A DNA stretch of 64,000 nucleotides, taken from assembly GCF_013122565.1 (NCBI RefSeq), contig NZ_CP053258.1; one strand, given 5' to 3'. The translations under genes and the position numbers were made by a program. Shown piece by piece: positions 4,351 through 11,583 of the stretch; the first letter of the stretch is position 1; each line of letters opens with the position of its first letter. This stretch comes from Escherichia coli (GTDB lineage: Bacteria > Pseudomonadota > Gammaproteobacteria > Enterobacterales > Enterobacteriaceae). The notes beneath the pieces were generated by a model. It was not told the DNA's origin. It did no database searches and saw only the letters and a program-made list of their open reading frames with translations.

Positions 4351-5004
4351 TTATATCCCTTCTTCACTCTCTTTTTTCGCTTCTGCCTTCTCGATTTCAC
4401 GATACCAGCGCGGATGGTGTTTCTTCGCCCAGCGACGGCTCACCTTCCCTTCGATCATCCCTTTAATCGATCCTTTCACCCAGAATGCCATATACATATG
4501 GATCAGGATGGCGTGGATCAGGATGATACCCGCAGCCGCGTGGATCAGCAGGCTGTAGCGAACAACTTGCATCGGGAAGTACTGCGCAAAGTACGGACGC
4601 CAGATAATTACCCCGGTCACCAGCAGCACAAAAATCATACTCATGATTGACCAGAACATCATCTTTTGCCCGGCGTTGTACTTACCAACATCCGCCACTT
4701 TATGCTCATTGCCTTTCAATACTTCGACAATGTTCAACAGCCACGGAATATCTTTCTTATCCGGGATGTTGTGATGCACAAAACGCACAAACATAAACAT
4801 CAGCGCGACGAAAATCGCAATGCCGAAGAACGGGTGCAAAATGCGTCCCATCTGCGGCGTACCGAAGGTTTGCGTCAGCCATTGCAGCGTCGGGAAGAAG
4901 AACGAAATCCCGGACAGCGCCACCAGGAAGAAGCAAATCACCACGGTCCAGTGACAGGCGCGATCAATAAATTTGGTGCGCACAATCATTTTCGACTTAC
5001 TCAT
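4351..5004 (-). CDS. fdnI: Formate dehydrogenase-N gamma subunit, cytochrome b556 (217 aa)
   Basis: Track ORF 4351..5046; 217-aa form starts [19 protein letters not shown]; hydrophobic helices with His ligands; overlaps fdnH stop by 8 nt. Confidence 0.92.
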
Positions 5005-5881
5005 GATGATCCTCCTCGTCATCGTCCACTTCCTTATTCGGGCCAATACCGATGTAGTGGAAAATCAACCCGGCAAAAGTGGCAATAAAGCCAGCCGCTG
5101 CCAGCGGTTTCAACGCGCCTTTCCACAGGCTTACCGAGGTGTCGATCTTCGGATCTTTCGGCAGACCGTGATACAGCTCCGGCTGATCGGCGTGATGCAG
5201 CACGTACATAACGTGCGTACCACCGACCCCTTCCGGGTTGTAGACGCCAGCATGTTCGTAACCACGCGCTTTCAGTTTCGCCACGCGCTGTTCCGCCAGC
5301 TCCAGCATCTCCTTCTTGGTGCCGAAGTGGATAGCCCCGGTCGGACAGGTTTTCACACAAGCCGGTTCCTGGCCGACGCTGACGCGATCGACGCAGAGCG
5401 TGCATTTATATACCCGGTTATCCTCTTTGTTGAGGCGCGGAATATTAAACGGACACCCGGCAATGCAGTAACCACAGCCGATGCAGTTTTCCGACTGGAA
5501 ATCGACAATCCCGTTAGCGTACTGAATGATTGCACCAGCAGATGGGCACGCCTTCAGGCAGCCGGGATCTTCACAGTGCATACAGCCGTCTTTACGGATC
5601 AGCCACTCCAGCTTGCCGTTCTGTTCGGTTTCGCTAAAGCGCATCACCGTCCAGGACTTGGCGCTCAGATCGGCGGGGTTATCGTAAACCCCGACGCAGT
5701 GCCCCACTTCATCACGGATGTCGTTCCACTCCGAACACGCCACCTGACAGGCTTTACAACCGATACAGGTGGAAACGTCGATAAGCTTCGCGACTTCTGC
5801 TTTGTAATCACGCACCTGAGAAGGCGGCGTGATGGAGTTAGTTGCGGACCTTTTGATAATGTCCTGCGTTTCCATAGCCAT
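4997..5881 (-). CDS. fdnH: Formate dehydrogenase-N beta subunit, 4x[4Fe-4S] (294 aa)
   Basis: Track ORF 294 aa; multiple CxxCxxCxxxCP ferredoxin motifs ([45 protein letters not shown]). Confidence 0.93.
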
Positions 5882-5893
5882 CTGTTCGCCCCC

Positions 5894-8800
5894 TTACGCC
5901 TTCTCGATGTTGACTAAGAACGCTTTATATTCCGGCGTTTGCGAGTTTGCATCACCGACATTCGGCGTCAGAGTGTTAGCGATATAACCTTTACGCGCGA
6001 CACCCTCAAAGCCCCAGTGGATCGGAATACCCACCGTTTCAACCTGCTGACCATTTACATTCAGCGGTTTCAGACGGCGCGTTACCACCGCCACCGCGCG
6101 GATAAAGCCACGCTTGCTTGAGACAGTGACACGATCGCCATTATTAATGCCTTTCGCCGCCGCCAGCGTTTCGCTGATTTCCACAAACTGTTCCGGCTGA
6201 GCAATTGCGTTGAGCAACGCGTGCTTGGTCCAGGTGTGGAAGTGCTCGGTCAGACGATAGGTCGTACCCACATACGGGAACTGCTCTTTTTTACCCATCC
6301 GCAGCGCGTCTTGTTCATACAGACGAACGACCGGGTTAGACACCACGTTCGGATGCAGCGGGTTAGTGCCCAGCGGCGTTTCAATCGGCTCGTAGTGTTC
6401 CGGGAACGGACCTTCCGCCATTTTGTTGATGGCAAACAGGCGTCCCATCCCTTCCGGCTGCATGATAAACGGCCCGGTTGGCGTACCCGGTGCGGCATTG
6501 CCGAAGTCCGGAATATCGTTACCCGTCCACTTGCTGCCGTTCCACTGGATCAGCATCCGTTTCGGATCCCACGGTTTACCGTTGATATCCGCCGAAGCAC
6601 GGTTGTAGAGTACGCGACGGTTGAGCGGCCACGCCCAGGCCCATCCCAGCGTATTCCCCAGACCGGACGGGTCGGAGTTATCGCGGTTAGCCATCTGGTT
6701 GCCCTGCTCTGTCCAGCTACCGGTGTAGATCCAGCAAGAAGATGCGGTTGTACCGTCATCACGCAGATGCGCAAAGCTACTCAGCAACTGACCTTTCTTC
6801 GCAATCAGCACGCCATTTGCGTCATAGAGATCTTCCAGCGCATAGCCGTTGTTCTCTTTTGCCACTTCGTCAGATTGCGGTTCGTGCGGCTGCTTGTAGT
6901 TCCAGCTCATCTTCATCAGCGGTTCTACGCCTTTACCACCTTCGGCCTGGTACAGCTCGCGCAGATGATGGTAGATACCCGCCAGAATTTCGCCGTCGTT
7001 ACGCGCTTCGCCCGGCGCGTCCTGACCTTTCCAGTGCCACTGCAACCAGCGACCGGAGTTAGCGATAGAACCATCTTCTTCGGCAAAGCAGGTCGAAGGC
7101 AGACGGAATACTTCAGTCTGAATAGACGCCGGATCGACATCGTTCGACTCGCCGTGGTTCTGCCAGAAGGTAGAGGTTTCAGTCACCAGCGGATCGATAA
7201 CCACCATGTACTTCAGCTTGCTCAGGCAGCTCACCACTTTGTTTTTGTCCGGGAAGGACGCAACCGGGTTAAAGCCCTGGCAGAAATAACCGGTGACTTT
7301 GCCTTCGTCCATCATGTTGAAATACTTGATGACGTCGTAGGTCTGGTCCCACTTCGGCAGCCAGTCATAGCCCCAGTTGTTCTCTTTCTGCGCGGCATCG
7401 CCATAGAAAGATTTCATCAGGCTAACGAAGAACTTCGGATAGTTGCTCCAGTAGTTCACCTGATCAGCCAGCGTCGCTTTCGGCGTGTTCGCTTCCAGAT
7501 ACGACTGCAAATCAACCTGTTTTTCTGACGGCAGCGTCAGATAACCTGGCAGGCTGGTAGAGAGCAGGCCTAAGTCAGTCAGGCCCTGAATGTTGGAGTG
7601 ACCACGCAATGCGTTCACGCCGCCACCGGCCATACCCATGTTACCGAGCAGCAACTGGATCATCGCCATAGTACGGATGTTCTGCGCACCCACGGTGTGC
7701 TGCGTCCAGCCCAGCGCGTACAGGAAGGTGGTTGTGCGATCCGGTGCGCTGGTGGAGGCCAGCACTTCACACACTTTCAGGAAGTCGGCTTTTGGCGTAC
7801 CGCAGATGTTTTCAACGACGTCCGGCGTGTAGCGGGAAACGTGCGCTTTCAGCAGGTTCCACACACAGCGCGGATGAGTCAGTGTTTCATCGCGTTTCGC
7901 ATAGCCGTTTTCATCGAACTGATAGTTCCAGGACGATTTATCGTATTGCCGTTTTTCAGCGTCGTAGCCGCTGAACAGACCGTCTTCGAAAGCAAAATCA
8001 TCACGCACCAGCAGGCTGGCGTTGGTGTAATGCTTAACATATTCGGCGTTGATTTTGTTGTTTTCGATCAGGTAGCGCAAAACGCCAGACAGGAACGTAA
8101 TGTCCGTACCGGAACGAATAGGTGCGTAAATATCCGCCACAGAAGCGGTACGCGTAAAACGGGGATCGACAACGATCAGGGTTGCATCGTTGTTGTTTTT
8201 CGCTTCCATCGCCCAGCGGAAACCGACGGGATGCGCTTCCGCAGCGTTACCGCCCATTACCATTACGACGTTAGCGTTTTTGATATCCACCCAGTGGTTG
8301 GTCATCGCACCGCGACCAAATGTTGGAGCAAGACTTGCTACCGTTGGTCCGTGTCAGACGCGCGCCTGGTTGTCTACCGCCAGCATCCCGAGGGAGCGGG
8401 CAAATTTCTGGGTCAGCATCCCGGTTTCGTTGCTGGCACCGGAGGCACACAGCATACCGGTAGAAAGCCAACGGTTTACCGTTACGCCCTGCTCGTTCTT
8501 TTCAATAAAGTTAGCGTCACGGTCAGCTTTCATCAGCTTCGCAATACGGGTGAATGCTTCTTCCCAGCTAATGCGCTGCCATTTGTCAGAACCTGGCGCA
8601 CGATATTCCGGGTAGCGCAGACGGTTTTCGCTGTTGACGTAATCCAGCAAACCGGCCCCTTTCGGACACAGCGCACCACGGCTTACCGGATGATCCGGGT
8701 CACCTTCAATGTGATAAATCGCTTCTCTGGCGTTTTTCGCGCCATCACCCAGGCTATACATCAATAGCCCGCAACCTACGGAACAGTATGTGCAGGTGTT

Positions 8801-8941
8801 ACGGATCTCTTTAGCGCGTAATAATTTGTAGTTTCGCGCCTGAGCCAGTGCTTGCTTCGGGGCAAAGCCCAATGCCGCTACTGTTGTTCCAGCCATACCG
8901 CCCGCGCAGATTTTAAAAAATTGTCTGCGACTGACGTCCAT
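5894..8941 (-). CDS. fdnG: Formate dehydrogenase-N alpha subunit, selenoprotein (1015 aa with Sec at codon 196)
   Basis: Two track ORFs (8354..8941 and 5894..8305) in the same frame, separated only by TGA at 8354-8356, with no stop in the 16 codons between. Twin-arginine signal MDVSRRQFFK. Molybdopterin oxidoreductase. Confidence 0.92.
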
Positions 8942-8989
8942 TGCTTTCCTCTTTTTTCAGGGGTATTACTGCGCGAGGAAACTAACAGT

Positions 8990-9085
8990 AAAATTCTGAA
9001 TCTTTTTGCGCGAAATCAAAAAGAACACGTGTTTGCCACAAAATAATCCGCCTGCGCAAATTGACCTACCTCAATAGCGGTAGAA
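8990..9085 (-). promoter_or_regulatory. Putative fdnG promoter region with FNR-like and NarL 7-2-7-like sites
   Basis: Top strand TTGCGCGAAATCAA (bottom strand TTGATttcgCGCAA, FNR-like half-site pair) near 9007-9020, and inverted heptamers TACCTCA-at-AGCGGTA near 9067-9082. Matched by eye to consensus; fdnGHI is known to be nitrate/anaerobically induced. Confidence 0.4.
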
Positions 9086-9172
9086 AAACGCACCACTGCC
9101 TGACAGGCCAGTTAAAAAAATGCTATAAAATTCAGCTTAATTTTTAACGGCAAGAGAGACAAAACAGCGAGC

Positions 9173-10313: not shown

Positions 10314-11414
10314 ATGAAATTAAAAATAGTTGCGGTGGTTGTAACTGGTTTGTTAGCTGCGAACGTAGCACACGCTGCCGAAGTCTATAACAAGGATGGT
10401 AATAAACTCGACCTTTATGGCAAGGTTACCGCTCTACGTTATTTTACTGATGATAAGCGTGACGATGGTGATAAAACTTATGCCCGTCTCGGCTTTAAAG
10501 GAGAAACGCAAATCAATGATCAAATAGTTGGTTTTGGTCACTGGGAATATGATTTTAAAGGCTATAACGATGAAGCCAACGGCTCGCGCGGCAACAAGAC
10601 CCGTCTGGCCTATGCAGGTTTAAAAATTAGTGATTTTGGCTCTCTGGACTATGGTCGTAACTACGGTGTCGGCTATGACATTGGTTCATGGACCGATATG
10701 TTGCCAGAATTTGGTGGCGATACCTGGAGTCAGAAAGATGTCTTCATGACATACCGTACCACCGGTGTAGCAACCTATCGCAACTACGATTTCTTTGGCT
10801 TAATTGAAGGGCTGAACTTTGCCGCGCAATATCAAGGCAAAAATGAACGTACTGACAACAGTCATCTTTATGGTGCTGACTACACGCGCGCCAACGGTGA
10901 CGGTTTCGGTATCTCCTCAACTTATGTTTATGATGGCTTTGGTATCGGTGCGGTATATACCAAATCTGATCGGACAAATGCGCAGGAAAGAGCCGCTGCT
11001 AATCCTCTCAATGCCTCCGGTAAGAATGCAGAACTGTGGGCTACAGGTATAAAATATGGTGCCAACAACATCTACTTTGCAGCTAATTACGCTGAAACAT
11101 TAAACATGACCACCTATGGCGATGGTTATATCTCGAACAAAGCACAAAGTTTTGAAGTGGTGGCGCAATATCAATTCGACTTCGGCTTGCGCCCATCACT
11201 CGCTTACCTGAAATCGAAAGGCAGAGATCTGGGCCGCTACGGCGACCAGGACATGATTGAGTATATCGACGTTGGTGCGACGTATTTCTTCAACAAAAAT
11301 ATGTCGACCTATGTTGATTATAAAATCAACCTGATTGATGAAAGCGATTTTACCCGTGCCGTAGATATTCGCACCGATAACATCGTCGCTACGGGCATTA
11401 CCTATCAGTTCTAA
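10314..11414 (+). CDS. yddL: General porin, OmpC/OmpF/PhoE family (366 aa), intact
   Basis: Signal peptide [27 protein letters not shown], porin-typical GxxYxF beta-strand periodicity and C-terminal ...GITYQF. Symbol is by position; this locus is a pseudogene in K-12 as I recall. Confidence 0.85.
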
Positions 11415-11452: not shown

Positions 11453-11583
11453 GATGTAAGTGCTGCTGTATGAATCCTTAAGTAAAAATGAGCAATTTTT
11501 GATATTTCTGAACATTCACCTCAATTAATATTATTCCATACCCTCCGGGGACATCTTACTATAATATTTATTGATGAGTGATT

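Follow-up and report, generated by a model that had tools for sequence, protein, structure and literature searches.

Selenocysteine Codons and SECIS Elements of Formate Dehydrogenases

In Escherichia coli, the complex of SelB, GTP, and Sec-tRNA(Sec) at the apical loop of the SECIS element delivers selenocysteine (Sec) to UGA in competition with RF2, as stated in PMC8659212, PMC13188914, and PMC4513850. The minimal SECIS has been defined as a 17-nt upper stem-loop, nt 15-31, located 11 nt from the UGA; within it, U17, G23, and U24 are conserved positions, U17 and G23 bind SelB, and mutation of either abolishes read-through (Liu et al. 1998, as cited in the review PMC8659212). According to the same review, Liu et al. 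1998 also found that unpaired bases in the lower SECIS region lower read-through by only about 25%. For the bSECISearch consensus of the bacterial element (bSECIS), the review PMC13188914 lists a loop of 3-9 nt, an upper stem of 4-16 bp, a G within the first two loop positions, 16-37 nt from the UGA to the loop, and a minimum free energy (MFE) of -7.5 kcal/mol or lower. That review also credits the assignment of the fdnG UGA to Sec to Berg et al. 1991. The Sec196 UGA and the SECIS of fdnG are textbook material, already known and annotated.

The window analysed here is a stretch of 64,000 nucleotides of E. coli DNA, in which the gene of interest lies on the minus strand. In K-12 (DH5alpha), the SECIS of fdnG is base-for-base the same as that of the window, and at least 150 nt around the UGA agree except for two synonymous-looking differences outside the SECIS. 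The operon and the flanking genes of the K-12 locus are also the same, with only strain-level substitutions. The fdoG gene of K-12, encoding formate dehydrogenase-O, likewise carries a UGA at codon 196, and from this codon up to at least +62 its sequence is that of the window. However, fdoG is a paralogue with 74.9% DNA and 77% protein identity overall, and it belongs to another locus (fdoGHI-fdhE/fdhD).

The fdhF gene, encoding formate dehydrogenase-H, is the experimental model and has a SECIS_2-like element, with Sec at residue 140, the homologous position. It shares with the window UGACACGG, the GGU...GC start of the stem, the bulged U17, and the loop bases G23 U24 C25 U26 in the same register, and its coding context ARV-U-HGP matches that of the window. 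In contrast, the apical loop of fdhF is GGUC on a UGCA/UGCA stem, whereas that of the window is GUC on AGCAA/UUGCU, and the lower helices differ. The comparison with the fdhF and fdoG elements, which an earlier note on this DNA had proposed as a check, thus came out in its favour, with an identical element in fdoG and with U17, G23, and U24 in register in fdhF.

Identification of the Gene as fdnG

A mechanical list of open reading frames gives fdnG as two pieces, as the earlier note had warned (Table 1). Translation of 8941..5894 in one frame yielded 1016 codons, and codon 196 is the only stop ahead of the terminal one; this bears out the claim that both pieces share a frame and are parted only by a TGA. 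Read directly from the sequence, this in-frame TGA (8356..8354) closes the 195-codon ORF. Between it and Met213 lie 16 sense codons, the number given earlier and without a stop, which encode the peptide HGPTVASLAPTFGRGA. The RNA of the minus strand reads GCG CGC GUC UGA CAC GGA CCA ACG GUA GCA AGU CUU GCU CCA ACA UUU GGU CGC GGU GCG AUG, and the downstream mRNA sequence quoted in the earlier note is correct. In the 820 codons 3' of the UGA, translation revealed no second stop and no frameshift, and reading through the UGA gives a product of 1015 aa. The translation begins with a twin-arginine (Tat) signal region, for which we assume the 33-residue extent of E. coli FdnG.

Table 1. Coordinates of fdnG, its operon partners, and its SECIS element in the 64,000-nt window.
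Feature	Position	Strand	Size or evidence
fdnG CDS, formate dehydrogenase-N alpha subunit	5894..8941	-	1015 codons and stop; translation, 1kqf_A, TIGR01553, and DNA identity
N-terminal piece in the ORF list	8354..8941	-	195 aa
C-terminal piece in the ORF list	5894..8305	-	803 aa; ATG start at 8305
UGA codon 196, almost certainly decoded as selenocysteine	8354..8356	-	Sequence; opposite X196 of 1kqf_A; equivalent codons in fdoG and fdhF
Predicted Tat (twin-arginine) signal region of FdnG, MDVSRRQFFK...ALA	8843..8941 (approximate extent)	-	RRQFFK motif in the translation
fdnH, beta subunit, operon partner	4997..5881	-	TIGR01582, 482.1 bits against a cut-off of 334.7; E. coli annotation fdnH
fdnI, gamma subunit (cytochrome b), operon partner	4351..5004	-	NF007558, 486.9 bits against a cut-off of 339; E. 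coli annotation fdnI
SECIS as bounded by Rfam SECIS_3 (RF01989), UGA included	8301..8359	-	84.3 bits, gathering threshold 63
Apical hairpin, candidate SelB-binding site	8325..8342 (nt 15-32)	-	MFE and centroid folds; pairing in homologues
Lower helix of the SECIS, register uncertain	8311..8351 (nt 6-13 with 38-46, G44 bulged)	-	ViennaRNA; encloses the apical hairpin

The joined product, in which Cys stood in for the UGA-encoded residue, was aligned with PDB 1kqf_A over residues 1-1015 on both sides (2396.9 bits). This entry, entitled 'formate dehydrogenase, nitrate-inducible, major subunit', is the crystallised alpha subunit of E. coli Fdh-N, and related PDB entries name the protein as selenocysteine-containing. 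The UGA stands opposite the non-standard residue X196, in agreement with the Sec at residue 196 that the earlier note expected from an alignment to FdnG. A genuine stop or frameshift relative to FdnG homologues, the outcome which that note had set against its own reading, was not seen in this alignment. At least four amino-acid differences between the FdnG of the window and 1kqf_A are visible (T130/S, F342/L, A366/E, and A666/S). The equivalog model NCBIfam TIGR01553 (formate dehydrogenase-N subunit alpha) matched in a single stretch with 1622.4 bits against a cut-off of 814.2, covering profile positions 1-1009 of 1009 and FdnG residues 2-1014.

At the DNA level, annotated E. coli fdnG/fdnH and the region 5800-9100 share 99.3% identity, and at least 80% of this query was covered in 5425 of 5426 complete E. 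coli genomes. The neighbourhood in DH5alpha (maeA, adhP, yddM, fdnI, fdnH, fdnG, yddG, yddL, narU) agrees with the ORF layout of the window, as does the gene order further downstream in strain PT62, and synteny places the fdnGHI operon here in the adhP/yddM...yddG/narU-narZ neighbourhood. For FdnI, the Fdh-N-specific gamma model NF007558 ('formate dehydrogenase-N subunit gamma') matched over 1-217 of 217 positions, while the Fdh-O-type model NF007924 scored below its cut-off. With fdoG, identity reaches only 75% at the DNA and 77% at the protein level, and the gene is therefore fdnG and not fdoG. Judged from its sequence, it is an intact fdnG, predicted to encode the catalytic molybdopterin subunit of respiratory formate dehydrogenase-N.

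Structure of the SECIS Element

The Rfam model SECIS_3 matched 8359..8301 on the minus strand over its full length (model 1-59 of 59) with E 1.1e-19 (E = 1.4e-18 over the whole window), beginning 3 nt before the UGA, and it was the sole SECIS match in the 64 kb at gathering thresholds. Membership in SECIS_2, the fdhF-type family, was rejected at 28.8 bits against a gathering threshold of 70, and the element is of the SECIS_3 type. A UGA with a SECIS had been called expected for formate dehydrogenase-N, and both the SECIS_3 match and the identity with K-12 fdnG and fdoG agree with that expectation.

With the U of the UGA numbered 1, the apical hairpin predicted by ViennaRNA consists of GG, the bulged U17 (8340), AGCAA, the loop G23 U24 C25 (8334..8332), UUGCU, and CC. 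Pair probabilities are 0.95-1.0 for the pairs 18:30 to 21:27 and 0.55-0.58 for 15:32, 16:31, and 22:26; if A22:U26 opens, the apical loop becomes AGUCU (5 nt). The earlier note had proposed a SECIS hairpin built on AGCAAG/CUUGCU complementarity. The hairpin is real and the two hexamers (nt 18-23 and 25-30) are indeed reverse complements, but they lie one base apart, so that G23:C25 cannot pair and a 6-bp stem is impossible. The stem therefore comprises the 5 bp of AGCAA/UUGCU closed by a GUC loop, together with GG/CC past the bulged U17.

The hairpin occupies nt 15-32 and carries the bulged U17 and the loop bases G23 and U24 in the canonical register, as in the minimal element. The remaining features also fall within the ranges of the bSECIS consensus, with a loop of 3 nt (GUC) that starts with G, an upper stem of 7 bp, a spacing of 19 nt, and an MFE between -13.8 and -15 kcal/mol.

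The register of the lower helix is less certain. The Rfam register pairs 4-10 with 40-46 and fits sequences of the form GGCCC...GGCCGUG, whereas on the E. coli-type GGACC...GGUCGCG it creates the oppositions A5.C45 and A9.G41. For the present sequence, the one-shifted register with G44 bulged reaches -13.8 kcal/mol versus -7.2 kcal/mol in the Rfam register. Across 64 homologues, pairing of the lower helix is 85.5% versus 85.9% for the two registers, so that neither is ahead. Since unpaired bases in this lower region cost only about 25% of read-through, the ambiguity leaves the conclusion unaffected.

Folding of the 60 nt after the UGA, another check proposed earlier, did produce the hairpin with an MFE of -15 kcal/mol. 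However, its stability is no better than that of shuffled sequences (z = -0.22), as 67 of 200 dinucleotide shuffles folded as well or better. The evidence for the element therefore comes from homology and covariation.

Conservation and Covariation of the Apical Hairpin

Homologues were collected by scanning genome contigs with the pattern GCNCGNGTNTGACAYGGNCCNNNNGTNGC, which gave at least 120 loci from Gamma-, Beta-, and Alphaproteobacteria and a few other phyla. Among the matches listed, 64 distinct FdnG-type 51-mers (window included) formed the alignment set, and 10 fdhF-type sequences were kept separate. The pattern demanded the TGA and fixed columns 1-5, 7, 8, 10, 11, 16, 17, 19, and 20, which are invariant by construction; this set, with 13 of its first 20 positions fixed including the TGA, says nothing on the frequency of Sec versus Cys.

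In the 64 distinct FdnG-type sequences listed, which represent many proteobacterial genera, the apical helix is paired in 99.6% of cells. Pair 18:30 occurs there as GC in 49, AU in nine, and GU in six sequences, and pair 21:27 as AU in 42, CG in 18, and GC in four, with zero unpaired cells for both. Each of these covarying pairs connects two third-codon positions (Val/Ala and Ala/Leu, respectively), so that the RNA pairs change while the amino acids stay constant. The observed covariation score was reached by none of 500 shuffles, and pairing fell to 26-57% in a control in which the partner columns were slid. Selection maintains the apical hairpin as RNA.

U17, G23, and U24 are invariant in the 64 homologues listed, where G23 and U24 were free in the pattern and U17 was fixed by it. 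At third-codon positions that the pattern left free, 13 of 15 vary among the same sequences, and the two invariant ones are G15, which pairs with C32, and U24 in the loop. Downstream, codon positions 1, 2, and 3 have mean entropies of 0.20, 0.08, and 1.05, respectively, a 3-nt periodicity. Variation after the UGA is thus concentrated at third positions, indicating that translation continues beyond the UGA, and the active-site segment HGPTVASLAPTFGRGA is common to the homologues.

Decoding of the UGA Codon and Alternative Explanations

Given these results, we are nearly certain that the TGA at 8356..8354 on the minus strand is the Sec196 codon of an intact fdnG, with a SECIS hairpin directly 3' of it. 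If the TGA were instead a true nonsense mutation, fdnG would be a pseudogene yielding only a 195-aa fragment, which is where a mechanical ORF caller ends the gene and which the unremarkable energy of the hairpin might be thought to favour. However, K-12 fdnG, an annotated intact gene, and fdoG both have this TGA at the identical codon, and the sequence of the crystallised protein shows a non-standard residue 196 and runs on to 1015. Furthermore, the 820 downstream codons lack any further stop or frameshift, homologue variation after the UGA falls mostly at third-codon positions, and a curated SECIS model matches with E 1e-19, so a nonsense mutation is practically out of the question. The presence of an ATG 17 codons past the TGA, which starts the 803-aa ORF, might also suggest two separate genes, one for a 195-aa N-terminal protein and one for an 803-aa protein from the ATG at 8305. 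Such an arrangement has a vanishingly small probability, because the 16 in-frame codons between the ORFs encode the conserved active-site segment HGPTVASLAPTFGRGA shared with homologues, no evident Shine-Dalgarno motif was recognised by eye in GGUCGCGGUGCG ahead of this ATG, and the profile and structure matches cross the junction unbroken.

E. coli shows low-level UGA suppression, and the UGA could in principle be read through without Sec, by near-cognate Trp or Cys insertion or by leaky termination, with the hairpin only slowing the ribosome. Nothing in this analysis favours such read-through, and we consider it highly improbable. The bases recognised by SelB (U17, G23, and U24) are present at canonical spacing, U24 and G15 do not vary although their sites are synonymous, and the orthologue structure has a non-standard residue 196 in a protein that related PDB entries describe as selenocysteine-containing.

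For the preferred reading, decoding of UGA 196 as Sec, the mechanism would follow that of fdhF and fdnG. The mRNA 3' of the UGA is predicted to fold as a bacterial SECIS, whose apical stem-loop (nt 15-32) presents U17 and G23/U24. By analogy, this hairpin would tether the complex of SelB, GTP, and Sec-tRNA(Sec), which could reach the A site once the ribosome meets the UGA. Sec would then be inserted at the UGA, competing with termination by RF2, and the inserted residue would become the Mo ligand of the active site. As the SECIS is identical to the K-12 fdnG element, we infer that SelB binding and selenium-dependent read-through with Sec insertion presumably take place in this strain too. None of selA, selB, selC (tRNA-Sec), and selD was located within the 64-kb window.

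The locus exemplifies the classic recoding of UGA, in a respiratory formate dehydrogenase that uses Sec as a molybdenum ligand, and it leaves the established picture unchanged. Its value is for annotation only. The two pieces, 8354..8941 and 5894..8305, should be merged into a single fdnG CDS in which codon 196 carries a translation exception (UGA = Sec), and fdnG should be called neither a pseudogene nor two genes.

Extended Nucleotide Identity around the Sec Codon

Sequence identity around the Sec codon was also compared in 16 loci picked for their identity to the window over +1..+51, which include both fdnG and fdoG paralogues. They come from at least eight genera, with Photorhabdus, Providencia, Citrobacter, Enterobacter, Escherichia albertii, Superficieibacter, Yersinia, and Klebsiella among the sources. 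In all 16, every base from -3 to +67, or beyond, is the same as in the window, while the hairpin ends near +46. Flanking third-codon identity is 40-62% in the 15 loci of other genera and 82% in Escherichia albertii. In the wider proteobacterial set, the 20 nt past the hairpin vary, with entropies of 1.66 and 1.41 at columns 48 and 51.

Between fdoG and fdnG, the longest shared run is 71 nt, covering exactly codons 195-218 with the UGA and the whole hairpin, and the next longest is 36 nt. Gene conversion was rejected as the sole cause of this 71-nt identity: loci from different genera likewise share the block unchanged, a sign of selection on the sequence. The freeze in Enterobacterales exceeds the SelB hairpin, and the extra ~20 nt might have a further sequence-specific role, although we regard this as unlikely. 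In that event, the ~20-nt tail could time the unwinding of the hairpin at the ribosome entry channel or affect the competition with RF2. The identity of the tail instead probably reflects lineage-level constraint, codon preference, or shared ancestry.

Conservation and structure around the UGA codon

Nucleotide identity around the selenocysteine UGA of fdnG is not confined to the predicted SECIS hairpin. Every base in the span -3 to +67 around the UGA (numbered from its U as 1) is identical in 16 loci from at least eight Enterobacterales genera, which were preselected by requiring identity to the window over +1 to +51 only (L009, L013, L018, L024, L030, L037, L038, L044, L045, L047, L048, L057, L062, L064, L065, and L067). 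This block is common to both paralogues, fdnG and fdoG, and extends about 20 nt past the 3' end of the hairpin. Third-codon identity in the flanks is 0.82 in Escherichia albertii (L030) and 0.40-0.62 in the remaining 15 loci, all of which belong to other genera.

The lower-helix register of the Rfam SECIS_3 consensus misfits the E. coli-type sequence, placing A opposite C and A opposite G. Shifting the register by one nucleotide, so that G44 is bulged, gains 6.6 kcal/mol over the Rfam register for the window sequence; across the homologues, pairing is about 86% in either register.

Upstream of fdnG, we also identified an inverted heptamer pair and a TTGAT-N4-CGCAA motif. The former resembles the NarL 7-2-7 site described for the fdnG promoter, and the latter resembles the FNR site described for the same promoter; both are thus only candidate sites.

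Features in and around fdnG and elsewhere in the window
Feature	Position	Strand	Remark
Identity block	8289-8359	-	
SECIS lower helix	8311-8353	-	
TTGAT-N4-CGCAA	9019..9006	-	
TACCGCT-AT-TGAGGTA	9082..9067	-	
Intact 366-aa ORF	10314-11414	+	At place of yddL in K-12/DH5alpha
Leucine-rich-repeat protein region	about 11578-13300	+	Downstream of porin
sok antitoxin RNA	62034-62185	+	Rfam RF01794, 109.7 bits, gathering-level match
sRNA RydC	62745-62808	+	Rfam RF00505, 92.5 bits, gathering-level match

Relation to other E. coli genomes

The gene order of the window is clearly E. coli-like. Among complete RefSeq E. coli genomes, no near-identical genome was found for any of the three intervals tested, where top identities were only 99.3% over fdnG (5800-9100), 97.8% over 9-33 kb (9000-33000), and 98.5% over 33-58 kb (33001-58000); therefore, judged from these identities, the lineage of the window seems to be absent from that collection.

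At the place of the window's intact ORF, K-12/DH5alpha possesses only the truncated porin pseudogene yddL. The counterpart of this ORF in strain PT62 carries the annotation of an OmpC-type porin. The leucine-rich-repeat region is strain-variable in comparison with the PT62 record (L124, 2578-5936), in which an IS1 transposase interrupts it and is flanked on both sides by leucine-rich-repeat gene fragments. The PT62 match to the window is broken into two pieces, with 24,774 bases in the record versus 24,001 in the query.
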